Positions 6-46,923 of a DNA stretch of 64,000 nt are shown piece after piece (within the stretch, counting starts at the first letter, position 1; the number at the start of each line of letters is the position of its first letter). Where the stretch lies: the IMG/VR virus record IMGVR_UViG_3300045988_112906. One strand, given 5' to 3'. This stretch comes from a virus. The position numbers and the translations under genes are program-made. Below the pieces are notes generated by a model. That model saw nothing but the letters and a program-made list of their open reading frames with translations, searched no databases and was not told the DNA's origin.

Positions 6-3000
6 ATGGCAGACAAAGTAACATCACTTTATAACGCATTAAAGGCGGATGGATTGTTCAAGCAGGCAAGAAGCCTGAATGACTTCAAGGCGAAAATGGC
101 TTACCAGGGCTATCGTTCGCAGATTTACAAACTGGCTAGGGATAAGGGCGCAAATGTCGGCACGTTTTCCCAGTTCACCAATGCGCTTGGTTACAGCAGC
201 GGTAGCCCGAAGCCCAGACAATCTTATGGTAGCTACCATACTCAGCAGCATAAGCCAGCAGAGAATAAAGCTATGACTACCGCACAGAGGGCAATGCAGG
301 TGGCGCAGGAATATCAGCAGACTCATCAGCCTACTGATTACCTTCACAGACCGCAGAACCAGATGGGCAGGGCACGGAGAAATGCGCCGGGCAAGGCTTC
401 TCCTTTCGTTCAGTCTCTCTATGAGATTGACAATGCACAGAAGGGACCTGATTATTCAGTTGACTATACATCACCAAAGGCTACACAGCAGGTGTATCAG
501 CAGAATCAGCAGTTAAGAAGACAGGCGGCTAAGACTGCAGGCGACCATATTGTAAATGATGAGTACCGCAGACAGAGTCAGCCGATGATTGACAACGGAA
601 CCGTCGGCGTGATGAAGCCTATGGGCGAGATAGAGCAGGAAATGAGCGATGCAGCTGATAGCCTCGTTGCAAGTAGCGGTGACTTCATCAAGAACAGTAT
701 CAACAATGAGTATAAGCAGGCAACTCTTAACGCAGAGAAGGAGATTCGCAGCAATGATGCTATGGGAAATCCTTTCATGGGGTCTAGTGCAGGTCTTATC
801 AGCACTCAGATTGCTAATAAATATGAGTCTCCAGACAAGATAATGGCAAGCTTGCAGAACAGTATCAAGAAAAATATTGCAAATATTTTGCCTCGGGCTA
901 GAGAACAGGCTATTCGGCTTGGTGTTTCAGAAGACTACTACATCAACAATATGGTCCTTCCGAAGATGGTAGAGAAAGCTGTCGGGGATTTCAGAGAGAC
1001 GGAAGTTGCAAGACGAATGCCTAAGAATGATCTGGACTATTTCGTTCAGGAGGCTACCAGTTCAAACTATCTTGCAAAACTCGGAATGATGCTCCTGAAA
1101 ACAAAGAGCCAAAGACAGTTTGACGAGGAGGCGTTGGCTCGCACCAACGAAGGAATGAATCCGAATTACAAGCCAAGCACGGCGTTGAGAGTTGGAGCAG
1201 ACGTAGTAGGTATGGTTTCAGATCCTATTTTCGGTGCATCGGCTAAAGCGGGCGGACTTGTTGCTGGTAAGCTGATTGGTAATAGTACCAAGCTAGCGGC
1301 ATTGATGGCTAACGGAAACCTTGCGCAGAGATTGATGGCAAAGGGAGCACAGGCTGTGACAAGCGGCGGTGTTACCGGTTTTGTATTCGACTCTACAGGC
1401 TCTGTGATTCAGAACTACTCTACCGGTGAAGACACTTCTCTGGGGAATACCTTAAAGGTTGCAGCAAAGGGCGGTGCGACAGGTGCGGTGAACTTTGCTA
1501 CTATGAGTCTGGCAGGCATTCCTCTAAGTGAAGTTGGAAGAAGCGTAGGACTGACAGGTATAAAGGGCGGTTCATTCTGGGGAAATGCAGGAAGAGCTAC
1601 TGCCAAGGTAGGCTTGGAATCAGGAAAGACCTATATGGAAGCTATGGGTATGTATCTTGGTGGATATGTATCAGGAAAACTTGAAGGAAGAACGGATGCC
1701 AACGGAAAACCTATCGAGTTTGATTTGTGGAATGGCACTATGGAGAGTCTTCCTACCGCCATCGGTTTCAGATTGCAGCATGCCGTGGAAGGATTGAGAG
1801 GCGGAAGAAAGAACGAGAAGGGTGAAGATATGGGCTGGTTTGGCTCTACCATTGCCAACTTCAAGGATTTCCTCACCTCAGACAAGGCTAAGGAATCAAG
1901 ATTCCTGATGACGGAGGATGAGAGAAACATGATATTTTCTTCTGGTGCCATGAACGGCTTGATGCCGGACGGCGAGAATATTGTCAGTTACGCAAAGAGA
2001 ACCAAGAACAAGAAGGTAAGCTATGATGATCCATATCTGGAAACAGATGCTTCCATGATCAAGAACACCTATGACCAAATCATGGCAGATTCTAAAGTTT
2101 CTTGGGATGCCAAGGCTAAGTTCTCAGCTATGGTTACAGGAATCATGCCATCGGCTCGCCCGATGATGGACTATATTACATTCTCTAATGAGGACTATGT
2201 AAAGGATGGGCTGCTGAGAGGAAAGCGCAAATACGTGAACGAGTATTCTGCTAACGGTGAGCTGTTATCAAAGATTCCTTATGACAACAAAGAGGATAGG
2301 GATAATGTAGTCTATACCCACAATATCAAGAGGGAGAATCTACGTCTGTATAACGCAATGGGCTTGCTCGCAAGACAGGATAGAAACAACTATGAGCTAC
2401 AGAATGACTTCTTTGTGGAAAACATGAAGAAGCCAGGCGCCGATGTCAATACCCTTGTAACAAATATGGGTAATGAAGGTTCTGATGTTTTCAGAGATTT
2501 TTCACTCTTTGCCTTGAACTCAGAAAAAGGAACTGTTCTGAAAACCATTGATTCTGTAGCCGTCCGTAACGGAATGAAGAGTGAGGATCTAATCAAAGCC
2601 ATGAGAAAGAATCCGATGAAACGAACAGATTTCGAGCAGAATGTATGTGTAGAGCTTCGCCGTGCATTGGAATCAAAAGCTTTTCCTTACGGTAAGGTTC
2701 ATGTGGAACAGAGCAATCTCAATGGTAAGGATGTTGCCGAGGACAATAACCTTGGAACCGAGCAGCCAAACGGCGATGCAGTAAAGCAGGAACTGAATGG
2801 TCTGAGGCAGGCAGAGGAAGAAGTGGAAGTGCTGATGCGTGACAATGATGTGTTCAGCCAGAACTTCAAGAAGCTACAGAGCCAAGGCTTAACGAATCCT
2901 CAGATTTATGACTGGATGGTCCAGCAGGGCGGCTTGACCGTAGAGCAACTTGAACCATTTGCCCATTATATTAATGCGAACGCTAGAGTGCAGGGTATGC

Positions 3001-6000
3001 AGGAAGCTACCAAGCAGAAGATTGAAGAAACTGTATCAGCCTTTGTTCAAGATTGGAGCTATCACGGCACATTTAACGGTCAGCCAATGAATGGCGAACA
3101 GGCTCTGTATGTACAGGATAGCAACGGAAGAACCCTTCTTGTGGGTTCGGGTGATGTCACATTCGACCAGACCAACGGCAGAGCTAAGGAAGGTGTCGGC
3201 GATATGCTCGTATGCTTCGACCCTAACACTAAGGAAATGGTCTATGTGAAAGCTGACGAGGTTACTTTCTTCCAGAATCAGCCTATCGACCAGTTTGCTG
3301 CTGAGTATCGCCAGAGATTGCAGATAAAGAACTCTGAGCCTTACAATCAGGCGGCACAGGAACAGGCGATGCAGGATGCAGCCAAGCCTCAGCAGGAGCA
3401 GGAAGCTCCGCAAGATAATACCACAAAATCGGAAGATAGTACCACAAAATCGGGTGAAAATGGCAAAGATGATACCACATCTGACACCACATCGGGCAAA
3501 AATAATACCACAAATGAGGACTTAGTACCACAAGAGCAGCCACAGCAGGAAAGCGAGGGTATGAAGCTCGAAGATGGCACTCCTGTTCCTTTTGATGCAA
3601 ACGGAGATCCTGATTTCATGAAAATGACTCCAGAGCAGGGGGCTGAGGTCTATAAGATGCTGTTTGAGGAAGATGCGCCAATGCAGATTGACAGCGACAT
3701 CAAGACCTTGGAGAAAGACTTGGAGAAGGTAAAGGCTTCCAAGTATGAAGGCGCTTCTGTTATGGAGAGAGCCGCAGCTCGTAAGAAGGTGAAGGAAGCT
3801 ATCGCACTGGCTGAGACTCAGGTGGAGAAAGCCAAGGCTATCAAGACTGCCATGGAAAAGAAGCCTGAGGCAGAGAATACCGGTGTAGGTACGGCTGAAA
3901 ACGCAGGACAATATGAAAAGGAACGTAAGCAGGGCTATCGTGAAGGTGAAGGCGGCGTTATCTATCATCGTCAGAAGCCAGAGGATGTTGGAGGTGTACG
4001 AGGCAAGGAAGTAACAGTAGCCTTCTCCCCTACCGAGAAAGTTGCAGGTCATGTTAAGCTGGTTGAGCTTGATTCTGTTCAGGCTAGCCACAACAACGGT
4101 CAGCTGAATCTTCTTCATTTCGGTCCAGACTGGCAGCCTAAGGACAGAAGCAGCCAGGCATCAAGAGTTGAGGCTGAGAAGATTGCAGGCAATATTGACC
4201 CAGAGCAGATTACTGGCAGCAACAATGCCTTCATAGGTTCGGCGCCGAGTGTGAACGAAAGACATGAAACCATCCAAGGCAACAACCGTGTGGATGCTTT
4301 GAAAGAAATGTATGCCTCTCACCCTGATCAGGCAGCCAAGTACAAGCAGTGGTTGATTGACCACGCAGCTGAGTTCGGCTTGAATGCTGAGGACATCAAG
4401 AAGATGAAGAAGCCTGTGATTGTAAACGAATTGCCTGTAGATGATGCTACTGCAAAGAAGCTGGGTCAGATGATGGCTAGCGGATTCGAGAGTGGCGGCA
4501 AGCGTATTCCTGAGGTTAGCGCTACCATCAACAAGCTTGGTGACAAGATGGAGAATCTGGCAAACGTTCTTCTTGCCGAGGGAACTCTTGGTGAGGATGC
4601 CAAGCTCAGCGACTTGATTAACCAGAACTCCAAGCGAGCTTTGGAATATCTCAACAAGAACGGATTCATAGACAATACCGAGTATGAGAATCTGGCTACC
4701 GATGTTGTTACCAGAAGACAATGGTTAGAGAATGTGTTGAAGGCTAGTCTGTTTGATGGAAACAGAAAGACAGAAGCCGCATTCAACCGATTGCCAGGCA
4801 ACGCTCAGAAGGCAGTATTGGCAACCTTCATGCGTGACAGAAACAGCAAGGCTGAGGATAGGATCAAGGAGAATATTCAGAAATCCTTTGAGGCTTACAA
4901 TGAATTGAACCAGATTGCAGGGTTCAAGAATGCCAAGAATATCGAGCAGGCAAGGGCTGCAATACAGGCGGAACTGTTAAATGGTTCTAATAATGTGTTT
5001 GGAGAGGCTTCAATTCGAGAAAAATACACTAACTTTGAACTCGAATTAGCAGCATTATACAAGGGTTTGAAAGACCAGAAGAGCCTGACAGGATTGTTTG
5101 GCGAGTTCTACAATGCCGTTCAAGGCAAGATTGGTAAGCAGCTGGATGCTTTCAGTCAGGAAAATGCTGAGCCTTTAGGTAAGGACGAGGCTATAGAAAA
5201 AGTCTTTGGAATCAATAACAAGCAAGATTATGACAGACGAAGAGAAACTGAATCTCCTTCTGAATCTGGAGGAGAAGATGGGGCTGAACCAGCAGGAGAC
5301 AGACCAGCAGAAGCAGGAGAAGGAAGAGTAAATTCTGAGGATGAAGACAAGCCAAATTCAGCAGGCTTTACTCCAAAGGAAATTAGAGATCATCAGGAAA
5401 AACTTGATAGAGCTAAGGAAAAATACGTAAAGGCTTTAAAAGAAGCCAAGAGTGAGAAGGAGATCAAAGCAGCGGAAGGTGAATTTGAGTTTGCGTATAA
5501 AGATCACCAGAATATGAACGGTGTTCTTGACGAGGCATCTGTGGCTGACATGTGGAATAAAGAACTTGAATCAGCAAAGGATTCCGTTAAGAAAGACTCA
5601 AAAGAACCGTCCGCAGATCCTATGGAAGGTTTGAAGCAGGCTGCTGACGCATTCCATGAAGAGCAGAAGCAGAAAGGTGAATTTGCCATGAACTTGAAGA
5701 TTGGCAAGGCTCGACAAGATTATGCTGCCGCCAAGGAAAGCGGTGATGCAGAGCGGACCACCACGGCTGCCAAGGAATTGAAGCATCTCTTAGACGACAG
5801 ATTGAAGCAAGAGGGTAAAGGTCTTGCTGAGAGACAGAAGATTATCGCCGAAGAGATAGGAAAGGCTGAGGCTGAGATAATCGACAAGCCTTGGGAACAG
5901 ATGGACTTGGAGGAACGAGAAGCTGTTTCTTCAAAGAACCCTCTCACGGAATCAGAGATTAACGAACTGACCTCTGAGGAAAATAAAGAATTGATACCTG

Positions 6001-7928
6001 CCGCACTCGCATATTTGCGTGGTGACAAGAGCAATATCATAAACGCAATATCTTACTTTAAAATTTGGAACGATGTTAGAAATAGACATGAGAATGTTTC
6101 CGACAATAGCGGAACAGAAAACGGAACACAGCTGGATGCTGCCGATACTACAGGCGGCGAAGGATTGGGACTGGGACGAGGACGAGAAAGCGGAAGACCT
6201 GATGGACCAGTGGATAGAGGAACAGGCAACGAAGCTGCACCCGGAGAGCGAAATGGCGGAGAGAGTAATCAGAACGACACTACTCTATCTGCTGGAGAAC
6301 AAGGCAATAAGCAAGGTGAAGGAAATTCATCCGGAGTGGGCGCAGTACCTGCCGGAGGTTCTGACACCAACGGAGGCGGTTCAGCTAGCGGAAATGGACA
6401 TGTATCTGGAGGAAGTGGACGTGAAAGCAGCAACAGACCTGCTGACACGAATGCAGGACGGAAGCCTACAGCCAAGCAAGGAACTACTTTCCCAGATAGC
6501 ACAGCAGAACGGCTAAAGCAGGAAAGAGCTGACTATGAGAAGAAGAAGAAAGACTTCTGGGCTAGATGGAAGAAGGCAGGGCAAGGCTATGCCAAGATTG
6601 CCCTGACTCCTTTCAAGAAGCTCAACCTTACACCAGAGCAAATAGAAATGCTGCCTGAGTTGGTAAAGATGCACCTTAACGGTGCTGTCTTGAAGATTAA
6701 GGAGGGTATCTACAAGTTCAACGAGTGGAAAGCTGCCATGCTTGCCGAGGAAGGCGAGGAGCTGAAAATGATAGGTCTTAGTGATGATGATATTGACAGA
6801 TTCATTGAAGACTATTGGAACACTCCTTACGAAATGGATGGTGAGACCCATACAATCAGGGAGTGGAGCAGCATCTATGGAAACCAGCATCTGAAAAAGA
6901 AGCTAAAAGAACCTCTTGAAGAGAAGTACAAGAGACAGATGGAAGCCGAACCTATCGAAGTGAAGGTGGGCGACATGAAGAACATCGAGGAGACTTTGCC
7001 TTATCTCTTGCCTCAGCAGCAGGAAGACGTATTGAAGGCTGAAACTCAGTTCTTCGGAAAGGAACATACAGACCGTGAACATGCTTACGGTAAGGGCTAT
7101 CTGTTTACCAATGGAACTGGTACTGGAAAAACATACACAGGTCTTGGCATTGCTAAGCGATTGGCTAAGCAGGGCAAAGGCAGAATACTCTTTATTACTC
7201 CTAGCCAGAAGAAGGTTTCCGACTGGATAAAGGACGGAAAGAATCTTGGTCTGGACATTAAGGATCTTGACTCCTGGGCAAAAATGCGTGGAACCACTGC
7301 TACTACAGAAAGTGGTGAAGGTATGGTAATTACTACATTTGCAAACTTTGGTCTGAATAAGAAACTTCTTGAAACAGAGTGGGATGCCGTTATCTATGAC
7401 GAGTGTCACCGTATCATGGAAAACAAGAAGGGTACTGAAACAGCCAGAAGTATGCAGCACTACATGGTTACCAATCGTGACGAGAATCATTGTTTCCAGA
7501 GATTGCAGAGCATCAACCCTGAGTATCAGAAAATGAATGGTGCTGCCGAAAAATTCGATGCGTTGCGACTAAAGGAAATCGAACGCATAAAGAAAGAGTA
7601 CAAGAATAGCCATCCAAGTGCTACAGACAGAGATGTGGATAATGCTACATTAAAGAGCCTTCCTAGAGATTTGAACAGCTTTGCCTCTGCCGACGGAATG
7701 ACTTTCCCTAAGCTTGGAAAAGCATATCAGGATTTCATCAAGGCAAGGGAAGCATATAATAAGGTAGAGCCTAAACTGAAAGAGCAGGCAAAGAGTTCGT
7801 GGAAACACACAAAAACCATATTCCTCTCCGCTACACCTTTCAATACTAGAGAGAATCTTGATTATGTTGAGGGCTATATCTTTAAGTATCCGGAAAAGGA
7901 CGAGAGAGGAATGGGTGGAAGAACCTAG
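6..7928 (+). CDS. Giant polyvalent (DarB-like) protein, part 1 (2640 aa): long unknown N-terminal region, S/T-rich and G-rich linkers, ParB/Srx-like segment, SNF2/DEAD helicase N-lobe. Ends at an in-frame TAG.
   Basis: Longest ORF, starting at ATG 6. Helicase motifs I GTGTGKT (7113), II DECH (7398) and III SAT (~7826). ParB-like IQGNNRVDAL (~4270). Same frame as 8040..14948. Confidence 0.85.
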   Translation: MADKVTSLYNALKADGLFKQARSLNDFKAKMAYQGYRSQIYKLARDKGANVGTFSQFTNALGYSSGSPKPRQSYGSYHTQQHKPAENKAMTTAQRAMQVAQEYQQTHQPTDYLHRPQNQMGRARRNAPGKASPFVQSLYEIDNAQKGPDYSVDYTSPKATQQVYQQNQQLRRQAAKTAGDHIVNDEYRRQSQPMIDNGTVGVMKPMGEIEQEMSDAADSLVASSGDFIKNSINNEYKQATLNAEKEIRSNDAMGNPFMGSSAGLISTQIANKYESPDKIMASLQNSIKKNIANILPRAREQAIRLGVSEDYYINNMVLPKMVEKAVGDFRETEVARRMPKNDLDYFVQEATSSNYLAKLGMMLLKTKSQRQFDEEALARTNEGMNPNYKPSTALRVGADVVGMVSDPIFGASAKAGGLVAGKLIGNSTKLAALMANGNLAQRLMAKGAQAVTSGGVTGFVFDSTGSVIQNYSTGEDTSLGNTLKVAAKGGATGAVNFATMSLAGIPLSEVGRSVGLTGIKGGSFWGNAGRATAKVGLESGKTYMEAMGMYLGGYVSGKLEGRTDANGKPIEFDLWNGTMESLPTAIGFRLQHAVEGLRGGRKNEKGEDMGWFGSTIANFKDFLTSDKAKESRFLMTEDERNMIFSSGAMNGLMPDGENIVSYAKRTKNKKVSYDDPYLETDASMIKNTYDQIMADSKVSWDAKAKFSAMVTGIMPSARPMMDYITFSNEDYVKDGLLRGKRKYVNEYSANGELLSKIPYDNKEDRDNVVYTHNIKRENLRLYNAMGLLARQDRNNYELQNDFFVENMKKPGADVNTLVTNMGNEGSDVFRDFSLFALNSEKGTVLKTIDSVAVRNGMKSEDLIKAMRKNPMKRTDFEQNVCVELRRALESKAFPYGKVHVEQSNLNGKDVAEDNNLGTEQPNGDAVKQELNGLRQAEEEVEVLMRDNDVFSQNFKKLQSQGLTNPQIYDWMVQQGGLTVEQLEPFAHYINANARVQGMQEATKQKIEETVSAFVQDWSYHGTFNGQPMNGEQALYVQDSNGRTLLVGSGDVTFDQTNGRAKEGVGDMLVCFDPNTKEMVYVKADEVTFFQNQPIDQFAAEYRQRLQIKNSEPYNQAAQEQAMQDAAKPQQEQEAPQDNTTKSEDSTTKSGENGKDDTTSDTTSGKNNTTNEDLVPQEQPQQESEGMKLEDGTPVPFDANGDPDFMKMTPEQGAEVYKMLFEEDAPMQIDSDIKTLEKDLEKVKASKYEGASVMERAAARKKVKEAIALAETQVEKAKAIKTAMEKKPEAENTGVGTAENAGQYEKERKQGYREGEGGVIYHRQKPEDVGGVRGKEVTVAFSPTEKVAGHVKLVELDSVQASHNNGQLNLLHFGPDWQPKDRSSQASRVEAEKIAGNIDPEQITGSNNAFIGSAPSVNERHETIQGNNRVDALKEMYASHPDQAAKYKQWLIDHAAEFGLNAEDIKKMKKPVIVNELPVDDATAKKLGQMMASGFESGGKRIPEVSATINKLGDKMENLANVLLAEGTLGEDAKLSDLINQNSKRALEYLNKNGFIDNTEYENLATDVVTRRQWLENVLKASLFDGNRKTEAAFNRLPGNAQKAVLATFMRDRNSKAEDRIKENIQKSFEAYNELNQIAGFKNAKNIEQARAAIQAELLNGSNNVFGEASIREKYTNFELELAALYKGLKDQKSLTGLFGEFYNAVQGKIGKQLDAFSQENAEPLGKDEAIEKVFGINNKQDYDRRRETESPSESGGEDGAEPAGDRPAEAGEGRVNSEDEDKPNSAGFTPKEIRDHQEKLDRAKEKYVKALKEAKSEKEIKAAEGEFEFAYKDHQNMNGVLDEASVADMWNKELESAKDSVKKDSKEPSADPMEGLKQAADAFHEEQKQKGEFAMNLKIGKARQDYAAAKESGDAERTTTAAKELKHLLDDRLKQEGKGLAERQKIIAEEIGKAEAEIIDKPWEQMDLEEREAVSSKNPLTESEINELTSEENKELIPAALAYLRGDKSNIINAISYFKIWNDVRNRHENVSDNSGTENGTQLDAADTTGGEGLGLGRGRESGRPDGPVDRGTGNEAAPGERNGGESNQNDTTLSAGEQGNKQGEGNSSGVGAVPAGGSDTNGGGSASGNGHVSGGSGRESSNRPADTNAGRKPTAKQGTTFPDSTAERLKQERADYEKKKKDFWARWKKAGQGYAKIALTPFKKLNLTPEQIEMLPELVKMHLNGAVLKIKEGIYKFNEWKAAMLAEEGEELKMIGLSDDDIDRFIEDYWNTPYEMDGETHTIREWSSIYGNQHLKKKLKEPLEEKYKRQMEAEPIEVKVGDMKNIEETLPYLLPQQQEDVLKAETQFFGKEHTDREHAYGKGYLFTNGTGTGKTYTGLGIAKRLAKQGKGRILFITPSQKKVSDWIKDGKNLGLDIKDLDSWAKMRGTTATTESGEGMVITTFANFGLNKKLLETEWDAVIYDECHRIMENKKGTETARSMQHYMVTNRDENHCFQRLQSINPEYQKMNGAAEKFDALRLKEIERIKKEYKNSHPSATDRDVDNATLKSLPRDLNSFASADGMTFPKLGKAYQDFIKAREAYNKVEPKLKEQAKSSWKHTKTIFLSATPFNTRENLDYVEGYIFKYPEKDERGMGGRT
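4040..4315 (+). other. ParB/sulfiredoxin-like domain segment inside the giant protein
   Basis: The sequence VELDSVQASHNNG...ETIQGNNRVDALKEMY resembles the ParB N-terminal pattern (I/V)xGxxRxxA. Judged by eye only. Confidence 0.4.
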
Positions 7929-8770
7929 TTCTACCTTAATCACTTTGGTGCAGCATACAAGTTCCGCTACCATCGTCTGGAGCAGAGTATCAGTAACCCG
8001 GATGCCGTAGCCAAGCAGGAGGTTGCCTTCTCTGATTACTTGCAGAACACACTTGGCACGATGAGCGGAAGAATTATTGATAGTCCTTACGACTATTCTA
8101 GAGACTTTCCTACCGTGGCTCCTGATCATGCCGAGAGTTTCAATAATGCGGTGCAGGACACATTGAAGACAAAGTATCTGCATGATGCGTACAGCAAGAC
8201 CATCGGTGATTACAACTATGGTAGTGCCCTTTTCGAGACTATGAAAGTGTCTGCTGCCATTGACAGAATCAAACAGCACTTGGATATGGGCAGAAAGGTT
8301 GTTATCTTCCATCGCCGTGTTGAGAGCAAGGAACCTTTGGAGGCTCCATTTGCTTACATGCTTAGAGTTGCCAACGAGCAGATCAAGATGATGAAACCAG
8401 GCAAGGAGCGTGACGAATACATCAAGGAATGCACCGAGTTCCGAAACAAGTATGCAGACCTTCTGGAATGGGAGAAGACTCTTGACTACAGTATGCCAAG
8501 AGAACAGATTGCCAAGGTGTTTGGCGAGAAGAATGTGTTGTTCTTCAGCGGAAAGGAAAGCAAGAAGGTGAAGGATAAGGCGGTTGATACATTTAATGAT
8601 GATGATAGCGGCAAGAATATCATCGTGATTCAGGAAGCTTCAGGAAAGGAAGGAATCTCACTTCATGATACCACAAGCAAGCACCAGCGTGTCTGCATCA
8701 CTCTCGCATTGCCTCAGAGTCCTATCACAGCCTTGCAGATTGAAGGTCGCATTTACCGTATCGGTAATAT
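7113..8770 (+). other. SNF2/DEAD-like helicase core (motifs I-VI) spanning the TAG at 7926
   Basis: Motifs I-III lie upstream of the TAG and motifs IV-VI lie downstream of it. Confidence 0.7.
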
Positions 8771-11700
8771 GAGCAATGCCATCTTTGAGTACCCTATCTT
8801 GGGTCTCAACTCTGAAATGATGCTTTTTGGAGAAAAGTTCAATAATCAGGTAAGTACTACCGAGAACCTTGCATTGGGCAGTCAGGCAAGAAACTTGCGT
8901 GACAGTTTCGCTAATGGTATCTTGGAACATAGCGGTATTGTACCGGTAGAGAACCAGGGTGTAGGCGGAAAGGAGTTTGACGCAGCAACACCAAGTGAGA
9001 ATGACCCATTCGATAATGCGGTGCTTGATTATTACAGCAATCAGAAACTTAATAAGAACAATCGTGAAGGTAGCGACTACTTCCCTACTCCTGAACCTCT
9101 TGGCTACAAGATGGTAGAATGGGCTGGCTTGGGTGAAGGTGACTCTGTATTGGAGCCTAGTGCCGGTCATGGAGCCATCGCAAGATACGTGCCTAAGACT
9201 AACGAAATGGTAAGCATCGAACCTAGTCAAAGTCTCTTCACGAAGTTGCAGTTGAAGGCTGGCGGTTTGGGTAGAAAGTTCTTAAACAATACGTTTGAGA
9301 ACTATGCGCTGAACAACAAGCACGATGTAATTGTAATGAATCCTCCTTTCGGCAAGGCTGGTGCATTGGCTATCCAGCATGTTGACAAGGCTTTCAAGCA
9401 CTTGGATGAAGGAGGTCGTATCGTAGCAATCATACCTAGAGGCTCAACAGACAAGAAGTTTGACAAGTGGTATAACGAGCAGAAGAACGTTGCCATGCGT
9501 GCTGAGGTAAATCTGCCTGATATCCTTTTCCAGCAGGCAGGAACCAGAGTTGCATGCCGAGTAGTTGTATTGGATAAGATTTCCGATGCTGCTTTGAGAA
9601 GCAAGGCAGGTTATCCTGAAAAGATTGATCTGAGCGGTCATTACGATAAGATTGAAGATTTCTTCAATGACCTCCGAGATATTGAAATGCCTGAGCGCAT
9701 CATTGATACGAATCTCAAAATGCAGAAGAAAGCCAAGGCTGCTGTCAAGGATATTATGGAAATCAAGGGCGTGAAAAACGTTTCTTATGGTAAGACTGGT
9801 ATTGATGTTTCTTTGACTGGTTCTTGGATGAACTACGGAATATCTTTCACTGGTAGTGACAAACCGAACTACTGGAGAGATAAGATGGCTAACTATTATA
9901 CCAAATATGATGAGCTTCAAAAGCTGGAGTATCAGGAAAACAAGCAGTCGGTGTTTGATGAGTTGAAGAAACTGTCTTGCAAGCTTGCCGGTATGACAGA
10001 GGATGAAATGCAGAGATATATCGCATCAAAGACCAACGGCAGCACCCACTTCCGTATGGAACTAGGCAAGACATTCTCAGACTCCAAGGAGAACTTTGAT
10101 GGAGTAAGAGACAGAGCAGTAGAGGAAAAAGGCATTGTCATGCCTAACCTGAATAAGGAAAGCGTTAATGTTGTGCCGGTGGAAAAACATAGCTTTGGAG
10201 TTACCGAGAATGAGATATTGACAAATGCAAAGGCATGGGCGAAAGATAATCTTGTAACTACAGGAAAATCGGAATTGCCTACAATGCGTGATGGAACGCC
10301 TTATACTATTAGTAAAAAGGCTGTTGAAAAATACTTGTCTGAGAGTGCTGTAAAGAAGAGCGATGGTCTTGATATTCATCTTTCCGTTCTTCCAAAGCTT
10401 ACAGATGTTATTCATGAAAGCATTGAAGCTGAGATTCATCCAGACTACAATAAGGACGAAGACGGAAATCGCAGCATCGAAAATGGGCACGGTGACAATA
10501 TTTTGGTCCATCGTTTGTATGGTGCTGTACAATTGGACGGTAAGACGTACCGAGTAAAAACAACCATGCAAGAGTTCAGAGGTGGTGAAGAAAACAAGCC
10601 TCATAGTTATGAGGTAACAAAAATAGAGTTGCTGGAAGGCTCCAAGACAGCGAACGAATCCGACAGTCTCCCTTTGAGCAGTGCAACCAACAACTCTGAA
10701 AATGAGTTACTTGGCTCCCCTGGAGAGCGAGAGAATCCCGACAAACCACATTCGGATGCACCAAGCAACTCTATTTCTGTTGCAAAGTTACTAAATGGAG
10801 TTGAGAAATCATACGATTCTGGGAAGAAATTGCTTGAAGAAAGCAAAAATTTAACAGATGAAGATACTTATTTTAGAAATGATAACGATTCACCCGTATC
10901 AATTTCTAAGGATGCTCCTGTTGTAGTAAAGCATGTGGCGAAGGTTGCAAAGGCTACTGGCGGCAAGGTGAAGATGTTGCAAAGTGTCGAAGAAGTTACC
11001 AATGCCGAGGCTAAGACAAGACTTGAAAAGGGTGAAAAGGTAGAAGGATGGTACGATGAACGCACAGGTGAAGTTGTGCTGTATATGCCAAACGTACATG
11101 ACAGCTACACAGCTGAGAAAACGGTATGGCATGAAATCGTAGGTCATAAAGGCATGCGTGAACTGTTCGGTAACGACAACTACGACAAATTCCTTGATGA
11201 TATTTACTTCAATCTTGATAAGCCGGAATACGCCGATCTTAAAAAGCTCGTCATGAAGGAACTACAGTACAATCCATTCGATTACAGAAATGCCATCGAA
11301 GAGGCTATTGCTAGAATGGCGGAAGAGGGACATGGCGAGCATGGTCTTTGGAATAACCTGAAAAACAAGGTAGCAAATATCTTTAGAGAAATCGGCTACC
11401 GTGTGGCGCCGAACACAAAGGACATTAAGTATCTCTTATGGCTCGCCAAGAATTACTCCAAGCATCCTGAGAGTGATGGTTACTTTGCTATCAGAAGAAA
11501 TGCCTTGCTGCATAAGTTAGAGAAAGATAATACGCCTAGCATCGTGGATAGAAACGGAATGTACTTTGATAATGATGGAAAGAACCATGATTATCTGCTA
11601 GACTTGAACCATAAGGACTTCGAGGAGGCTACCGATGGAAAAGTGCATTTCCGCACCTCCCCTATGACTGCATCTAAGATTGAGGAGTATAACCGCAGAC

Positions 11701-14700
11701 TCGGAACAAAACTCTATGCTTTCAAGGAAAGTTCCGTTGATAATATGCAGTCTTTGCAAGAGGCTATGGAAATAATCTCTGGTGAAAAGAATGCGTGGAC
11801 GGATATTCCTTCTGCCTTCAATCCATTGCAGGCGCAGAACCGCATTGATAGTATCGTACAGCAAAAGGCAGAAGAGTATGACGATAAATACACGAAGCCT
11901 CTTGATGATTCTTTCAAGAAAGTTGTATCTACCATGAGCGGTAGCGATAAGGATGAGCAGTTGAGAAACGCACAGATCTATATGATTACCAAGCATGGTT
12001 TGGAGCGTAACCGTGTATTCTTTGTTCGTGACGCAATTCGGGATATGATGAATGGCGATGTTACGAAAGCAAAGACATTGATGAAGGACTGGAACGACAA
12101 GCAGAAGGATTTGGCTGACGAACTAGAGAAAGGCAACATCAGATTTGATGAGTACCTGGAGCAAATGGACGAATGGATTCGTAGCAACGTGGACGTTAAC
12201 TTTGTTGCTGACGAACACGATTATTCTGGATTCCATGGTATGCAAAATATAGCCAAGACCTCTGATCCATACGACGACAAGCTTGCCATTGACAACGTGA
12301 TGAGTGCAGAAAGCCAGATGGGTAGCGATTTGGCAAAAGACTTCTGGATAAAGAAGAAGGCTGCAACAGATTACGTTATCGACCAAGAATACTACAACGG
12401 CTTTATTGATCAATCTGATAGAGATTATCTAAAGGGAATGTTCCAATGGTATGTGCCTCTTAGAAAGTTTGATGATACAACCGCAGAAGATGTGTATGGT
12501 TATATCGGAGAAAAGGGAGATCCTTCCAACTTTGTTGGTCCTGTATTGGCAAATGCAAAGGGAAGAAGCAGTCTGAGCGACATTAATGTTATGGCTCAAA
12601 TATCCGCCATGGCAAAGTCTTCGCTTATCAATGGTGGAAAGAATGTAGTAAAGCAGTACTTTGCCAGATTTGTTTCTGCCTATGAAACTGGTAATACAAA
12701 AGATAAAATCTTTGTTGAAGTGAATCCTTGGCTAGAGAAGCACGTGGTAGATGGTAAAGAAGTTTGGGAAGAGGTTACACCTCAAATTCCGGAGAACGCC
12801 ACACAGCAGCAAATAAGCGATATACTGCAAAACTTTGAGGACAGCATGCAGGCGAAGAAAGCAACTGGTGATGCAAAGCTTTCACACAGAAAGCCTAACA
12901 TTGGCTTTAAATTCCAGCGTGCCAAGGATAAGTCTGAACATATCATTGATGTGTATATCGCAGGAAGGAAAAGAAGCTTTGTCTGTCAGGGTAACCCAAG
13001 AGCAGCCCAAGCACTCAATGGTCTTTTGAAAGATTCAGGAACCAGAAATGCGGTAACGCAATTTGATGCGAAGGTTACGAGAAAAATTGCCCAATTCAAT
13101 ACATCGCTGAATCCAGACTTTATGATGTCTAATATGTTGCGTGACTTAACTTTTGCATCAGCCAATGTTACCAAGGAAGGATTTAGCTACACCAAGGACT
13201 TCTTGAAAGAATATGCAGGAAACATGATTTCTATCAAGAACGGAAAAGGTAGTGGAAACTATCTTACTATGTTCCGCAAGTATAGAGACGGTAAGCTTGA
13301 TACAAATAATGAACGAGAAAGAATGTTCAAAGAGTTTATGGACAATGGCGGTCAGACTGGTTTTGTTCAAATCAAGAAACTGGAAAGCCTGATTGAGGAA
13401 TATGATAACCTGATCAAGAAAGGAAGTAAGGATGCAGACGGATGGTTTGTCAAGAAAATCAAGGAAGGTGGAACCTTTATTGAGACTGCCAACGAGATTA
13501 TTGAAAACGTAGCTCGCTACTCTACTTACTGTACTTCACGAAAGCACGGAAGAAGCGTAGGACGAAGTATCTATGATGCCAAGGAGGTTTCAACAAACTT
13601 CAACCGGCACGGTTCTGGAGATGCCATCAAGACCTTGAAAACTTCAAATGATAGCAATATTGATAAGAAATTCCGTGGTACTCTCGGTTTCTTCAATAGC
13701 TGGATGAAGAATCATACGCAGTTCTATAACGCCGGCGTGCAAGGTGCAAATCTGTTTTTCAAGAACTATAAGAGTGCATGGAAGACTTCTGCCGTTTCAT
13801 TCGGTATGTTACCTTTAGGACTCGGTATTGCTCAGGCGTTAATCAATCAATACCTGATTAATAATGAGGACGAGAAGGACAGAAAGGGCGTGAAGGATCC
13901 ATACGCAGAGTTACCAGAATGGAAACGCAGAAATAATATCTGTATCTATACTGGGCACGGAAACTTTAAGACTATTCCTATTGCCATCGAGTTAAGAGCG
14001 TTCTTCGGGTTGGGCGATATTGCGGCTGGCTATGTTGTGAATGATAAGTTGAAGAGTAGTACGCCTATCGGTTATGATATTTTGGGACAGATGGCACAAT
14101 TAGTACCAGCCTCTGATTTCCTTGGACACCATTCGCCAAGCAACAACATTAAGGAACTTGGAGAGGATGCAATACTTGCAGTAACTCCAACAACCATATC
14201 TCCTGCTATGGAACTTGCCTTCAATCGAGACTGGACAGGCAGACCTTTCTATCGTGATTATGACTATCTTGATAAGGCTCCAAGATGGAAGAGGGCATAC
14301 GATAACACCAATAGTATTTATATGAGTATTAATAAATGGGCTAACCAAGGCACAAATGGTATTGATAGTTCTAATGCAGACATGAAGGGAAATGAAACTC
14401 TTGATTATCTTACTGCACCTTACGCTTGGCAACATTTGATAGATAGTTACACCGGTGGCATGGGTTCAACTATTGGCAGAACTTACAAAACGTTAGAAGC
14501 TGTTGGTAAGGGCGTTGTATCTGGAGCAAAGAACAAAGAAGGATTCAGCAAGGGCTTCTCTGATGAATTTGAAAAGTTTGATAAAAATCAAATCCCTCTT
14601 TACAGGGTGTTTAACTATACTCCTAAAGAGGGGCAAGACATGCAGCGAACTAGATCGAAATGGTATAACTATTCCGACGAGTTGAAGCAGACGGAATATA

Positions 14701-14948
14701 ATATTAAGCAGTTGAAGACTAACACGCCTGATGTTTTGAAGAACATGGAGAACAATGCCAAGAAGTTCAACTTTACTCATAGCAAAGAAGGAAAGGCGTA
14801 TAATATATGGAATGCAGCAGATAATTATATCCAGAAGAAGAAAAAAATCTTAAAAAGAGTATCTGATCCGGAAGTAATCAAGTCAATTAACGAAGACATC
14901 AATCGAAAGATGCAAGAAGCGGTGAATGATTTGGATAAGCTAAATTAA
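8040..14948 (+). CDS. Giant polyvalent protein, part 2 (2302 aa as tracked): helicase C-lobe, N6-adenine DNA methyltransferase, zincin-like motif, long C-terminal region.
   Basis: Same frame as 6..7928. The frame is open from 7929, and the first in-frame ATG is at 8061. Motifs: VVIFHRR, QEASGKEGISLHD, QIEGRIYRIGN (8736), VLEPSAGHGAI (9147), NPPF (9339), HEIVGH (11130). Confidence 0.85.
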   Translation: MQNTLGTMSGRIIDSPYDYSRDFPTVAPDHAESFNNAVQDTLKTKYLHDAYSKTIGDYNYGSALFETMKVSAAIDRIKQHLDMGRKVVIFHRRVESKEPLEAPFAYMLRVANEQIKMMKPGKERDEYIKECTEFRNKYADLLEWEKTLDYSMPREQIAKVFGEKNVLFFSGKESKKVKDKAVDTFNDDDSGKNIIVIQEASGKEGISLHDTTSKHQRVCITLALPQSPITALQIEGRIYRIGNMSNAIFEYPILGLNSEMMLFGEKFNNQVSTTENLALGSQARNLRDSFANGILEHSGIVPVENQGVGGKEFDAATPSENDPFDNAVLDYYSNQKLNKNNREGSDYFPTPEPLGYKMVEWAGLGEGDSVLEPSAGHGAIARYVPKTNEMVSIEPSQSLFTKLQLKAGGLGRKFLNNTFENYALNNKHDVIVMNPPFGKAGALAIQHVDKAFKHLDEGGRIVAIIPRGSTDKKFDKWYNEQKNVAMRAEVNLPDILFQQAGTRVACRVVVLDKISDAALRSKAGYPEKIDLSGHYDKIEDFFNDLRDIEMPERIIDTNLKMQKKAKAAVKDIMEIKGVKNVSYGKTGIDVSLTGSWMNYGISFTGSDKPNYWRDKMANYYTKYDELQKLEYQENKQSVFDELKKLSCKLAGMTEDEMQRYIASKTNGSTHFRMELGKTFSDSKENFDGVRDRAVEEKGIVMPNLNKESVNVVPVEKHSFGVTENEILTNAKAWAKDNLVTTGKSELPTMRDGTPYTISKKAVEKYLSESAVKKSDGLDIHLSVLPKLTDVIHESIEAEIHPDYNKDEDGNRSIENGHGDNILVHRLYGAVQLDGKTYRVKTTMQEFRGGEENKPHSYEVTKIELLEGSKTANESDSLPLSSATNNSENELLGSPGERENPDKPHSDAPSNSISVAKLLNGVEKSYDSGKKLLEESKNLTDEDTYFRNDNDSPVSISKDAPVVVKHVAKVAKATGGKVKMLQSVEEVTNAEAKTRLEKGEKVEGWYDERTGEVVLYMPNVHDSYTAEKTVWHEIVGHKGMRELFGNDNYDKFLDDIYFNLDKPEYADLKKLVMKELQYNPFDYRNAIEEAIARMAEEGHGEHGLWNNLKNKVANIFREIGYRVAPNTKDIKYLLWLAKNYSKHPESDGYFAIRRNALLHKLEKDNTPSIVDRNGMYFDNDGKNHDYLLDLNHKDFEEATDGKVHFRTSPMTASKIEEYNRRLGTKLYAFKESSVDNMQSLQEAMEIISGEKNAWTDIPSAFNPLQAQNRIDSIVQQKAEEYDDKYTKPLDDSFKKVVSTMSGSDKDEQLRNAQIYMITKHGLERNRVFFVRDAIRDMMNGDVTKAKTLMKDWNDKQKDLADELEKGNIRFDEYLEQMDEWIRSNVDVNFVADEHDYSGFHGMQNIAKTSDPYDDKLAIDNVMSAESQMGSDLAKDFWIKKKAATDYVIDQEYYNGFIDQSDRDYLKGMFQWYVPLRKFDDTTAEDVYGYIGEKGDPSNFVGPVLANAKGRSSLSDINVMAQISAMAKSSLINGGKNVVKQYFARFVSAYETGNTKDKIFVEVNPWLEKHVVDGKEVWEEVTPQIPENATQQQISDILQNFEDSMQAKKATGDAKLSHRKPNIGFKFQRAKDKSEHIIDVYIAGRKRSFVCQGNPRAAQALNGLLKDSGTRNAVTQFDAKVTRKIAQFNTSLNPDFMMSNMLRDLTFASANVTKEGFSYTKDFLKEYAGNMISIKNGKGSGNYLTMFRKYRDGKLDTNNERERMFKEFMDNGGQTGFVQIKKLESLIEEYDNLIKKGSKDADGWFVKKIKEGGTFIETANEIIENVARYSTYCTSRKHGRSVGRSIYDAKEVSTNFNRHGSGDAIKTLKTSNDSNIDKKFRGTLGFFNSWMKNHTQFYNAGVQGANLFFKNYKSAWKTSAVSFGMLPLGLGIAQALINQYLINNEDEKDRKGVKDPYAELPEWKRRNNICIYTGHGNFKTIPIAIELRAFFGLGDIAAGYVVNDKLKSSTPIGYDILGQMAQLVPASDFLGHHSPSNNIKELGEDAILAVTPTTISPAMELAFNRDWTGRPFYRDYDYLDKAPRWKRAYDNTNSIYMSINKWANQGTNGIDSSNADMKGNETLDYLTAPYAWQHLIDSYTGGMGSTIGRTYKTLEAVGKGVVSGAKNKEGFSKGFSDEFEKFDKNQIPLYRVFNYTPKEGQDMQRTRSKWYNYSDELKQTEYNIKQLKTNTPDVLKNMENNAKKFNFTHSKEGKAYNIWNAADNYIQKKKKILKRVSDPEVIKSINEDINRKMQEAVNDLDKLN
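9147..9353 (+). other. N6-adenine methyltransferase catalytic region (SAM-binding motif I and NPPF motif IV)
   Basis: LEPSAGHGAI together with VIVMNPPFGKAG. Confidence 0.75.
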
Positions 14949-17101: not shown

Positions 17102-17956
17102 TTGGCGGCTGGATTGACCTTCTCGCCTAACGTGAGCGGACAGAAGAATCCTTACTTAGATGCCGTGGGCTGTATGTCGCAGCTTGTGCCGGTGATGGAC
17201 TATCTCGGCAACTCTTCGGCTGGTAAGGAGCCATTGAACGAGACGATCAAGGCTTTCTCTCCTTCTGCCCTATCTCCTTTCGTGGAATGGGAGTTAAATA
17301 CCGACTGGAAGGGTGCGCCAATTGAAAGACGTGGTGACTGGAATGAAAATTCCCCTGCTTGGCAGAGAGCCTACAAGGGCACGCCTGACGGATATATGGC
17401 TGTGAATAAATGGGTGAATGCCCAGACCAACGATGTAGCCAAGGGCAACGAGGATATGCTGGGCAACAGTTTCCTGGATATGGCAACGAACCCTAGTATG
17501 CTGAATCACTACATCGGTGGTATCGGTGGCGGTGCTGCTACGTTTACAGAGCGACTTATCGGTGTTATCAAGCATGGAAACGATACGGAAACCAAGGATA
17601 TTCCTTTCCTTCGATCGCTGCTTTATACGCCTAACGAGCAGAGCAGTTTGCAGAGAACCAAGAGCAAGTGGTATAACTACAAGGATGAAATGGAGAAGAC
17701 GATGGCGAACGTGGACCGCCTGAAATCGAAGAACGTTCCGCTGGATAAGAGAATCACAAATATCGGTGAGTATTATCAATTCCAGAACTCCAAGGAGGCT
17801 GCCAAGGTTAGGGTGATAGAACTGGCTGAGAAGCAGATGAAGCGATGGAAGAAGATGAGGGATAAGGCGAGCGATACCGAAAGCATCAACTTCGCCAATC
17901 AGAATATTGATAGGATCATGATGGATGCGGTGGATGAGCTGGATAGGCTGGAATAA
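17102..17956 (+). CDS. Orphan, diverged copy of the C-terminal ~285 aa of the giant protein (possibly a remnant)
   Basis: Colinear similarity to residues encoded at ~14020-14948: QLVP, DWxGxP, AWQRAY/RWKRAY, NKWxN, YxGGxGG, QRT(K/R)SKWYNY, AVxELDxL. There is no ATG at the boundary (TTG instead). A terminator follows. Confidence 0.6.
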   Translation: MAAGLTFSPNVSGQKNPYLDAVGCMSQLVPVMDYLGNSSAGKEPLNETIKAFSPSALSPFVEWELNTDWKGAPIERRGDWNENSPAWQRAYKGTPDGYMAVNKWVNAQTNDVAKGNEDMLGNSFLDMATNPSMLNHYIGGIGGGAATFTERLIGVIKHGNDTETKDIPFLRSLLYTPNEQSSLQRTKSKWYNYKDEMEKTMANVDRLKSKNVPLDKRITNIGEYYQFQNSKEAAKVRVIELAEKQMKRWKKMRDKASDTESINFANQNIDRIMMDAVDELDRLE

Positions 17957-44538: not shown

Positions 44539-44997
44539 ATGGTATATATGGCAGAGATTATTCATACATTTTTGCAAGAGCACCTGTACAGATCGGCATT
44601 GGTTATTGCCATCTGCATGGGTGCTCTTATCATTTCTATGGGCGTGGACCTGTTCTTTGGCATCAAGAAAGCGAAGGAGAACGGACTGGCTACGACAAGT
44701 ACAGGATTCAAGAAGACTTGCGACAAGGCGAGGAAATACTTCTCTCCCTTCATGGTGACGGTCTGCATAGACCTGATAGCCTGTACGGTTCTCCCCTTCC
44801 CTGTCTTCTCTATGATATGGGCAGGCTATTGCGTGTTCTGTGAATTTGTAAGCGTAAGAGAGAAGAGCTGGCAGAAGGCTGAGATACGGAAGCAGGAGAA
44901 AACGGTAAGCATTCTTCTGGAGAACAAAGAAGACTTGGCTAGGGCTTTTGCCGAGATTATGAAGGAACTGGAAAAGGAGAAGGAGGGCAAGGTATGA
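44539..44997 (+). CDS. Holin-like membrane protein
   Basis: Two or three TM helices and a charged C-terminal tail. Lies immediately upstream of, and overlaps, the amidase gene. Confidence 0.55.
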   Translation: MVYMAEIIHTFLQEHLYRSALVIAICMGALIISMGVDLFFGIKKAKENGLATTSTGFKKTCDKARKYFSPFMVTVCIDLIACTVLPFPVFSMIWAGYCVFCEFVSVREKSWQKAEIRKQEKTVSILLENKEDLARAFAEIMKELEKEKEGKV

Positions 44998-45416
44998 GAC
45001 TGATTGAGAGAATTTTCGTTCACTGTACTGCCTCTTCTCAGAAATGGGGCGTAAAGGAGCTTTGGGATGAGTTTAAGCGCAAGGGCTGGAAGAACCCCGG
45101 CTATCACTATGTAATTACCAAGGATGGTGGCATACACCAGATGCTGCCGGTAGAAATGGTTAGCAACGGTGTGAAGGGATATAATTCTACTGCCATCAAT
45201 ATTGCCTATGTGGGCGGTATCGACTCGAAGGGAAAGGCTGTAGATAACAGAACCAAGGAGCAGAAGGATGCTCTGGTTACCCTGCTTAGACAGCTGAAAA
45301 AGAAATATCCGAATGCGGCGATTATGGGGCATCGTGACATTTGGGGGGCAGACAAGTCGAAGTGGAAGAAGATGTGCCCTTGTTTTAATGCGAAAGAGGA
45401 ATATAAAAATCTATAG
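44994..45416 (+). CDS. N-acetylmuramoyl-L-alanine amidase endolysin (PGRP / amidase_2 type)
   Basis: IFVHCTAS...GYHYVITKDG...GYNSTAINIAYVGG...MGHRD...CPCF. Confidence 0.8.
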   Translation: MRLIERIFVHCTASSQKWGVKELWDEFKRKGWKNPGYHYVITKDGGIHQMLPVEMVSNGVKGYNSTAINIAYVGGIDSKGKAVDNRTKEQKDALVTLLRQLKKKYPNAAIMGHRDIWGADKSKWKKMCPCFNAKEEYKNL

Positions 45417-45419
45417 CGT

Positions 45420-45860
45420 ATGAAGTGGTATGACATAAAATTTTGGAAATGGACTTGCATCGGTTTAGTGGTTGGAGTTATCCTACTGGCATTTACTAGC
45501 TGCAAGACCAAGGAGTATGTGAAGGTTCCCGAGTATCATACTGAGTATATTGTGAGAAGTGATACTATCGCCAAAATGGATAGTGTGTATGTGAAGGATT
45601 CGGTTTATGTGTATCAGAAGGGTGATACCGTGGTTATAAGCAAGATTGCCTATCGGGACCGATACCGCAATATATATAAGGTGAAGCTTGATACCATCTT
45701 CAAGCATGATTCAGTTTCCGTGCCAGTACCAGTTGAGCGGCAACTTACCAAAAGTGAGCAGAGATTAATGACACTGGGAAGATGCTATATCGGATTTCTT
45801 TTCCTGTTGGCTGTATGCGCCATCGGCTTTGCCTTCTGGTATCACAATAAAAAGTGCTAG
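45420..45860 (+). CDS. Unimolecular spanin-like protein (N-terminal lipobox plus C-terminal TM helix)
   Basis: LLAFTSC lipobox and the C-terminal helix IGFLFLLAVCAIGFAFW. Follows the endolysin gene. Confidence 0.6.
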   Translation: MKWYDIKFWKWTCIGLVVGVILLAFTSCKTKEYVKVPEYHTEYIVRSDTIAKMDSVYVKDSVYVYQKGDTVVISKIAYRDRYRNIYKVKLDTIFKHDSVSVPVPVERQLTKSEQRLMTLGRCYIGFLFLLAVCAIGFAFWYHNKKC

Positions 45861-45863
45861 CTT

Positions 45864-46175: not shown

Positions 46176-46232
46176 GTATAATTTTAGGTTTTTGTTTTTA
46201 TAGGTTAGACGTTTGTTTATTTAGCTAAAAAT

Positions 46233-46920: not shown

Positions 46921-46923
46921 ACG

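Follow-up and report, generated by a model that had tools for sequence, protein, structure and literature searches.

Phage-type polyvalent proteins are giant polypeptides of tailed-phage genomes, in which a ddrB-ParB domain, a dyad of SWI2/SNF2 ATPase and adenine methylase, LPD3 and LPD38 are found together (Iyer, Burroughs, Anand, de Souza & Aravind 2017; PMC5512222). LPD38 is specific to the phage-type proteins, and a zincin-like MPTase processing domain is the commonest hub domain of polyvalent proteins (PMC5512222). The antirestriction protein DarB of phage P1 and DarB-like proteins also fuse a SNF2-type helicase to an N6-adenine methylase; virion packaging and the protection of injected DNA from restriction are described in the P1 literature summarised in PMC5512222. 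In this work we analysed a window of 64,000 nucleotides from an IMG/VR virus record, in which one reading frame carries the polyvalent repertoire (ddrB-ParB, ResIII/Helicase_C of the SNF2/Sno-like type, MTS methylase, LPD3 and LPD38). Three differences separate it from the described phage-type proteins: with ~4,980 residues it stands at the large end of their range, the MPTase (zincin) Pfam match is absent and only a HEIVGH motif is present, and the frame of this variant is broken by an amber codon. Compared to DarB, the module lies inside a far larger protein and its helicase is interrupted; by analogy with P1, its function and its virion packaging are putative.

Classical amber mutants of non-essential phage genes share with this locus a truncation by a single-base CAG-to-TAG change, an intact downstream frame and possible restart codons nearby, at which translation occasionally restarts. 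Here, however, the amber codon belongs to the consensus of a wild gut-metagenome phage and was not selected in the laboratory. The second resemblance is to the code-15 gut phages (crAss-like, Lak), human-gut phages with in-frame TAG codons where homologues have Gln, in which TAG is reassigned to Gln (genetic code 15; bioRxiv 10.1101/2021.08.26.457843; PMC9523058). Unlike in those phages, the TAG considered here is alone in its gene and unconserved in relatives, TAG is a frequent true terminator, and a suppressor tRNA was not found.

The giant frame runs from ATG 6 to TAA 14946-14948 on the plus strand (4,981 codons), and its sole internal stop is TAG 7926-7928, codon 2641, which separates helicase motif III from motif IV in the DarB-like SNF2 helicase/methylase module (Table 1). 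The initial annotation had proposed that the SNF2 core of a giant gene is interrupted by a single amber codon, with a complete helicase in neither half. Our analysis bears this out: motifs I-III lie upstream of the TAG and motifs IV-VI downstream, exactly where they had been placed, with Pfam matches to ResIII/AAA_34/DEAD on the upstream side and to Helicase_C/Helicase_C_4 on the downstream side. The 37 open codons following the stop, described earlier as protein-like, indeed read as FYLNHFGAAYKFRYHRLEQSISNPDAVAKQEVAFSDY, and TTG 8040 and ATG 8061 are both in frame. The open frame 3' of the TAG extends over 2,339 codons, which is beyond chance, and homologues align without a break across the stop position; consequently, both halves are coding sequence of one ancestral gene.

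Table 1. Features of the giant gene (positions in the window).
Feature	Position	Strand	Remarks
Upstream ORF	6..7928	+	2,640 codons, amber end; low-complexity linkers, ddrB-ParB, SNF2 N-lobe
ddrB-like ParB superfamily domain (aa 1343-1474)	4032..4427	+	Pfam PF18763, E=6.8e-25
SNF2/SF2 helicase N-lobe (ResIII/AAA_34/DEAD)	7056..7451	+	Pfam; motifs I and II
Helicase motif I, GTGTGKT	7113-7133	+	motif search
Helicase motif II, DECH	7398-7409	+	motif search
Helicase motif III, SAT (inside FLSATPF)	7827..7835	+	invariant in homologues
Amber codon TAG (codon 2641)	7926..7928	+	CAG (Gln) in closest relatives; single C-to-T transition
44 open codons, stop to first in-frame ATG	7929..8060	+	well-conserved helicase segment (FYLxHFG...RY...F)
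Downstream ORF (gene call of public assemblies)	8061..14948	+	2,295 codons, TAA end; NCBI DAU30926.1
Helicase C-lobe, motifs IV-VI	8298..8768	+	Pfam Helicase_C match 8481-8765
Helicase motif IV, VVIFHRR	8298-8318	+	motif search
Helicase motif V, QEASGKEGISLHD	8631-8669	+	motif search
Helicase motif VI, QIEGRIYRIGN	8736-8768	+	motif search
Methyltransferase domain; NPPFG catalytic motif 9339-9353	9216..9440	+	Pfam MTS; UPF0020, N6_Mtase weak
LPD3 (large polyvalent-protein-associated domain 3)	10221..10589	+	Pfam PF18798, E=2.5e-8
HEIVGH zincin-like motif	11130..11147	+	motif only
LPD38 domain	13896..14507	+	Pfam PF18857, E=1.5e-26

The downstream ORF contains the SNF2 C-lobe, the N6-adenine methylase, LPD3, the HExxH motif and LPD38. 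Motifs I-VI and NPPFG of the DarB-like module are all present, but the chain is broken by the TAG in this variant; a complete SNF2 core in one chain next to the adenine methylase is present in all 13 relatives and absent here. Pfam gave no match in the HEIVGH region, even at E<=1, and the motif may be the remnant of a processing peptidase. The window also encodes portal, terminase, RecT-like, SbcC-like and tail-fibre-like proteins, which is a phage setting. Megablast against a phage collection retrieved no near-identical cultured phage, and a PDB sequence search was without match. Searching the protein against cultured phages gave matches at 32-34% identity only; two of these, over 650 aa in Serratia phage Parlo and Pseudomonas phage Skulduggery, carry a DarB-like annotation and are continuous across the stop site. 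The host was not assigned from genome bins, as the MAG labels were inconsistent (Alistipes, Oscillospiraceae).

Next to the interrupted gene stand 13 IMG/VR relatives, all with a single uninterrupted ORF of 4,791-5,573 codons. The initial annotation had named homologues that are consistently two separate genes as evidence against its proposal; they are fused in 13/13. These relatives are viral contigs of 70-86 kb. Codon 2641 is CAG in six relatives at ~98% protein identity, CGA in four at 84%, and CAA or CAG in two at 81-83%. The residue opposite the TAG, which the initial annotation had wanted aligned, is therefore Gln (CAG) in the closest relatives. A sense codon is likewise present in eight other contigs spanning the site, including CAG in three metagenome contigs and CGN in four MAG contigs; a fourth metagenome match with CAG (L039) is the same contig as one already considered (L014). 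Moreover, several intact proteins of 4,983-4,984 aa share a 90% identity cluster with the interrupted protein. A stop at codon 2641 was found in 0/13 IMG/VR relatives, in 0/8 other contigs and in none of the near-identical proteins.

On the window branch, synonymous and nonsynonymous substitutions were 62:25 upstream of the TAG and 30:10 downstream, and pairwise dN/dS downstream was 0.02-0.11. Private downstream changes of this lineage comprised 9 synonymous and 3 nonsynonymous substitutions, and the frame downstream of the TAG has no further internal stops. Purifying selection is still visible and the downstream part is not decayed, indicating that the TAG mutation is recent, although an intact 2,339-codon frame with an excess of synonymous changes is also expected from continued expression of the C-terminal half.

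The amber codon is very probably a recent loss-of-function allele of a conditionally dispensable anti-defence gene, without a recoding or regulatory role. Of the nonsense mutation or assembly error considered at the outset, we thus retain the nonsense mutation, for which a single transition from the CAG codon found in the six closest relatives suffices, while an assembler-specific error is unlikely. The 15-kb gene encodes a phage-type polyvalent protein with the domain order ddrB-ParB, SNF2 ATPase and N6-adenine methylase, LPD3 and LPD38; by analogy with P1 DarB/DdrB, it would be a large virion protein injected with the DNA and blunting host restriction. A spontaneous C-to-T change in this one variant converted the Gln codon CAG 2641 into amber TAG. 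Translation would stop after 2,640 residues, giving a truncated product of ~290 kDa in which ParB and the N-lobe of the helicase are retained, whereas the C-lobe, the methylase and every later domain are missing. Any C-terminal 2,295 residues would come from a fortuitous and inefficient restart at the conserved internal Met 8061. The stop, its uniqueness, its origin in one step, its recency and the ordinary use of TAG as terminator are shown by the data; the anti-restriction role, packaging in the virion and tolerance of the knock-out are inferred.

A tolerated or selected split is a quite unlikely alternative, in which the helicase is knocked out and both halves are still made: translation would terminate at the TAG with some restart at ATG 8061 or TTG 8040, and the ParB part and the LPD3/LPD38 part would be kept as two proteins. 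Nonsense alleles would then recur in the helicase because it alone is dispensable or because its loss is advantageous, for example as an escape from a host defence sensing the DarB-like module. Private nonsense codons, both verified by direct translation, are also present in the SNF2 domain of two other close relatives: a TAA at codon 2526 (GAA to TAA, L045, from SRR29703735) and a TGA at codon 2813 (CGA to TGA, L051, from ERZ27270099). Together with the TAG, three private single-nucleotide nonsense alleles thus fall in a stretch of less than 290 codons, in a gene of 4,980, with downstream ORFs otherwise intact. The helicase (codons 2340-2960) represents 12% of the nonsense target of the gene, and the probability of both extra alleles falling in it is about 0.015; however, this concerns three alleles only, and ascertainment was biased, as they were found through the cluster of the downstream half, of whose 30 members 15 were listed. 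The additional alleles hint that the helicase is repeatedly knocked out in nature, and something beyond random decay may be acting.

Private downstream changes were mostly synonymous in the nonsense lineages (9:3 in the window, 25:6 in L045), and in-frame start codons occur 16-45 codons past each stop. Against a maintained split, the stop-to-start distances equal the chance expectation, the start contexts differ from those of real starts, L051 has no private downstream changes with respect to an intact relative and shows recency only, and the split is kept in no diverged lineage. The A+T content upstream of TTG 8040 and ATG 8061 was 48-52%, compared to 73 +/- 13% at 43 real starts. ATG 8061 corresponds to an internal Met conserved in homologues and lies in a GC-rich context; the segment 7929..8060, which any restart product would lack, is well conserved in homologues and includes a nearly invariant Phe. 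The idea of a gene evolved as split, with reinitiation at ATG 8061, is consequently not supported, given the fusion in 13/13 relatives and a start context unlike real starts.

Several other candidate interruptions were rejected. Two short C-terminal 'fragments' of the same cluster (P0134 and P0142) were artefacts of 100-N scaffold gaps. Two frameshifted contigs (L048 and L049) showed several frame changes in 4-5 kb of scaffold, probably assembly or sequencing noise, and a third with a single +1 frameshift (L044) was put aside as probably of the same nature. Nucleotide alignments projected onto codons generated false 'stops' in indel-rich mosaic regions, and only directly translated events were retained. 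Querying with the 650 C-terminal residues was uninformative on where the gene is split, as that search apparently lists only proteins of up to ~1,100 aa and giant ORFs are invisible to it.

An error of sequencing or consensus, in which the population really has CAG and the T is artefactual (e.g. cytosine deamination at modest coverage), is very unlikely. The identical 2,640-aa product is present in at least three public assemblies (ENA ERZ1748977, Logan SRR1761719 and ENA ERZ28621585) and in NCBI TPA DAU30927.1. The assembly DNA had 0 mismatches to the window over 17.9 kb, and the assemblies are mutually identical up to 10 kb upstream. As several assemblies give the same sequence, an assembler artefact is unlikely; the 100% mutual identity also suggests that all TAG-bearing assemblies probably come from one sample, and probably from one read set, which would favour a shared error. 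A literature search on SRR1761719 found no paper. The reported k-mer coverage is only ~9.9x, and C-to-T is the commonest damage-type error; nevertheless, consensus errors are rare at Illumina depths of ~10x or higher, and the same base was called by several different assemblers and pipelines. The analogous private nonsense codons in the two relatives, which come from other samples, demonstrate that such alleles exist.

The last alternative is that the TAG is decoded, by readthrough to isoforms of 2,640 and ~4,980 aa or by a code-15-like reassignment or suppression of TAG to Gln. Gln is aligned at the TAG in the closest homologues and the frame 3' of it is intact, and Gln is also the residue inserted in known TAG-recoded phages (bioRxiv 10.1101/2021.08.26.457843; PMC9523058). 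In this genome, however, TAG terminates ~18/65 other greedy ORFs (~27%), the RecT-like and amidase genes included, and it terminates the same giant gene in 10/13 relatives. The stop-start junction TAGCGTATG occurs 10 times, compared to 0.31 expected. Three open stretches with TAG, at 44883-46181(+), 60347-61393(-) and 61695-62375(-), had the appearance of recoded genes and raised the possibility of global recoding; on translation they were arrays of separate small genes with TAG-CGT-ATG junctions, and recoding was rejected. ARAGORN detected no tRNA genes in the window or in the 10 kb upstream (L027), which cover ~74 kb of the ~76-kb genome, nor in six stretches of 19-21 kb around the giant gene in relatives. 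The minimum free energy of 7906-8025 was no better than that of shuffled sequences (z = 0.12), and the +4 base after the TAG is T.

Neither of the decoding mechanisms put forward by the initial annotation is supported by these data: programmed UAG readthrough has against it the lack of the stop in every relative, the absence of downstream structure and the +4 T, and dependence on a suppressor tRNA the routine use of TAG as terminator, also of the same gene in relatives, and the failure to find a tRNA in ~74 kb. Programmed decoding is highly improbable, largely refuted already by the non-conservation of a TAG that is the only one in about 5,000 codons of the gene, and a CAG-to-TAG mutation would lead one to expect precisely this Gln at the aligned column.

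Where a gut phage has TAG in frame in place of a Gln codon, the gene looks like a case of code-15 recoding or readthrough; here the relatives reveal a fresh nonsense allele. Consequently, NCBI DAU30927.1 and DAU30926.1 are to be read as one disrupted gene, neither as two genes nor as a recoded gene. By itself, the amber allele is an ordinary finding of a kind already known. We consider it unlikely that the helicase is a recurrent target of natural knock-out, its loss being selected in some hosts and the flanking parts being used as two polypeptides via restart. Should an unbiased survey confirm that independent nonsense alleles cluster in the helicase, this would provide a natural read-out of when a DarB-like anti-restriction module becomes a liability to a phage.

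The TAG at window 7926-7928 is the sole internal stop between ATG 6 and the TAA at 14946-14948 (4,981 codons), and the frame remains open for 2,339 codons past it, which makes a chance origin of this frame impossible. The initial annotation described this amber codon as splitting the helicase core; the description was correct, and its motif coordinates all proved exact when re-checked against the window (see the table). Pfam concurs, placing ResIII/AAA_34/DEAD before the TAG and Helicase_C/Helicase_C_4 after it.

Positions of the features in the window, and contigs sharing the upstream product
Feature	Position	Remark
Helicase motif I	7113	5' of TAG
Helicase motif II	7398	5' of TAG
Helicase motif III	7827	5' of TAG
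Helicase motif IV	8298	3' of TAG
Helicase motif V	8631	3' of TAG
Helicase motif VI	8736	3' of TAG
HEIVGH motif	11130-11147	zincin-type
Low-complexity linker	~3400-3650	aa ~1150-1210
Low-complexity linker	~6300-6600	aa ~2090-2200
Second LPD38 protein	17174-17956 (+)	260 aa, E=2.8e-14
TAGCGTATG sites	45414, 46738-47070, 58363, 60671-62087	10 sites; also 27816
ENA ERZ1748977 NODE_37		76,317 bp, coverage 9.9
Logan SRR1761719; ENA ERZ28621585 (SAMN03283292)		exact 2,640-aa product

From N to C terminus, the giant protein comprises a ddrB-like ParB domain, an SNF2/Strawberry-notch-like ATPase, an N6-adenine methylase (MTS match and NPPFG motif), LPD3, HEIVGH and LPD38. Its architecture is that of a phage-type polyvalent protein (PMC5512222). 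P1 DarB, which belongs to the virion head and guards injected DNA against type I restriction, is the archetype of the SNF2-methylase dyad treated there (PMC5512222). Among cultured phages, the nearest annotated proteins (32-34% identity over the 650-aa helicase region; "DarB-like antirestriction" in two of these phages) are all unbroken at the TAG site. The window is a tailed-phage genome, with genes for portal, terminase, RecT-like, SbcC-like and tail-fibre-like proteins, and the relatives' contigs measure 70-86 kb.

The HEIVGH motif occupies the position where polyvalent proteins often have an MPTase processing peptidase; no Pfam family matched the 300 aa around it, even at E<=1. The linkers between the domains are rich in Gly, Ser, Thr, Asn, Glu and Asp, and indel differences among relatives fall there too. 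The second LPD38 protein is encoded ~2 kb 3' of the giant gene; its ORF is kept in other assemblies of the window contig, and the counterpart ORF in the Logan contig L045 has no Pfam call. The C-terminal ~1,000 aa with LPD38 also exist as a stand-alone protein of ~1,000-1,100 aa (~42% identity; P0152, P0155, P0156 and P0164, encoded on 38-50-kb contigs), so the giant gene may be a fusion of modules encoded separately elsewhere.

IMG/VR was scanned with a protein guide, which yielded 13 loci, and in all of them the giant gene was a single unbroken ORF (4,791-5,573 codons). The codon at the TAG site was CAG in the six closest relatives (~98% protein identity), CGA in four (84%), CAA or CAG in two (81-83%) and an unrelated sense codon in one distant relative. 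A degenerate DNA pattern permitting any NAG at the site recovered CAG alone, its matches being those six viral contigs plus four metagenome sequences, one of which (L039) is the near relative L014; four MAG contigs have CGN there. Moreover, the 90% identity cluster containing the downstream half also has intact proteins of 4,983-4,984 aa reading ...GGRTQFYLNHFG... As all relatives compared have a sense codon at this site, the stop is private to the window sequence, and their codons place it one C-to-T transition from an ancestral Gln codon. Of the fourth explanation considered initially, a nonsense mutation or an assembly error, the first part is therefore the supported one.

The second part is unlikely. 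The exact 2,640-aa product was found on five contigs, ERZ1748977, SRR1761719 and ERZ28621585 being among the matches listed. These three show 0 mismatches to the window across the 17.9 kb in common and are mutually identical over up to 10 kb upstream as well. A TPA Caudoviricetes record at NCBI holds the same 2,640-aa product (DAU30927.1) and the downstream ORF (DAU30926.1). The complete agreement suggests one underlying sample processed through several pipelines, which argues against an assembler artefact and is no proof that the allele circulates.

The gene is not an evolved split gene with reinitiation at ATG 8061, since the relatives are all fused and the start contexts are atypical. The candidate restarts TTG 8040 and ATG 8061 correspond to a conserved helicase Leu and Met, and the 25 nt before them are 48-52% A+T vs. 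73 ± 13% at 43 real window starts, within the lowest 5-10% of these. A product starting at 8061 would lose 44 residues that homologues conserve well, among them a nearly invariant Phe; a complete helicase could not be restored from it.

Programmed readthrough has no support, and code-15-type reassignment of TAG is excluded, because TAG serves as an ordinary stop in this genome, tRNA genes were not found and the RNA 3' of the TAG folds no better than shuffles (z = 0.12); the sense codons in relatives also speak against readthrough. In a greedy non-overlapping ORF set, TAA ends 38 ORFs, TAG 19 (the truncated ORF counted) and TGA nine, and the giant gene itself ends in TAG in 10 of the 13 relatives. 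Dependence on a suppressor tRNA is not supported, given the same terminator use and the ARAGORN result, which shows no tRNA gene in the window, the 10 kb before it or six stretches of 19-21 kb that surround the giant gene in relatives.

Open stretches with several in-frame TAGs were considered as recoded genes and are actually arrays of small genes, in which CGT-ATG comes after a TAG and begins a new protein (e.g. an amidase-like ORF, recognised from its translation, and then a protein whose signal sequence is lipoprotein-like). TAGCGTATG, a nonamer made up of stop TAG, CGT and start ATG, occurs 10 times vs. 0.31 expected, and the five copies read (45414, 60679, 61057, 61832 and 62087) all lie at junctions of consecutive small genes. 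The nonamer resembles a conserved junction for stop-restart (translational coupling), or else the footprint left by a repeated gene cassette.

With substitutions polarised using outgroups, the window branch had synonymous to nonsynonymous ratios of 62:25 before the stop and 30:10 after it. Downstream pairwise dN/dS was 0.02-0.11, similar to intact lineages, and private changes in codons 2830-4980 (10-sequence alignment) were 9 synonymous and 3 nonsynonymous. The giant gene contained no additional stops or frameshifts. The intact downstream half is explained by either a very recent stop or ongoing selection there, and recency is the simpler reading. The TAG is thus an ordinary, recent amber allele in an already known kind of gene, and the two public gene models are best read as a single disrupted polyvalent-protein gene.

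The giant gene is strongly mosaic against near relatives L014-L019: blocks of 95-99.6% nucleotide identity are interleaved with blocks of 40-60%, which vary by relative (approximately the opening 750-1,250 columns of the alignment, plus 1500-2000 and 3750-4000). N-termini also vary, and together these patterns indicate module swapping by recombination. In the first 60 nt of L046 and L047, loci from two different samples, the independent assemblies break <=6 nt apart, just 5' of helicase motif III, and the sequences past the break are not homologous, suggesting a strain-level recombination junction. In contig L030 (ENA ERZ26858467 NODE_128, 72.5 kb), a related polyvalent gene at the contig end (2-5046) is in pieces (957-aa and 713-aa ORFs), with the helicase C-lobe and methylase deleted, and the genes elsewhere on the contig are of cellular type (MoxR-like ATPase, carbonic anhydrase, MFS and RND efflux components). 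The broken gene resembles an integrated remnant in decay.

Two further single-nucleotide nonsense alleles were found in the same SNF2 domain, a private GAA-to-TAA at 9947-9949 of L045 (Logan SRR29703735_6499; window-equivalent codon 2526; product on three contigs) and a private CGA-to-TGA at 3536-3538 of L051 (ENA ERZ27270099 k95_41430; codon 2813). In each, the other two sites are sense and the rest of the gene is intact. Other apparent fragments were contig ends, 100-N scaffold gaps or multi-frame-change scaffolds, and the helicase is intact throughout ~15 other close sequences. The helicase (codons 2340-2960) is 12% of the giant gene's one-step-to-stop target; the chance of both extra alleles falling there is ~0.015, and of all three ~0.002, figures subject to biased ascertainment, as the extra alleles were reached via the downstream-half protein cluster, among 15 of its 30 members listed. 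The pattern is consistent with repeated knock-out of a conditionally dispensable anti-defence module; such losses might be selected, and restart might rescue the C-terminal half. This possible enrichment of independent helicase nonsense alleles is the one lead of note.
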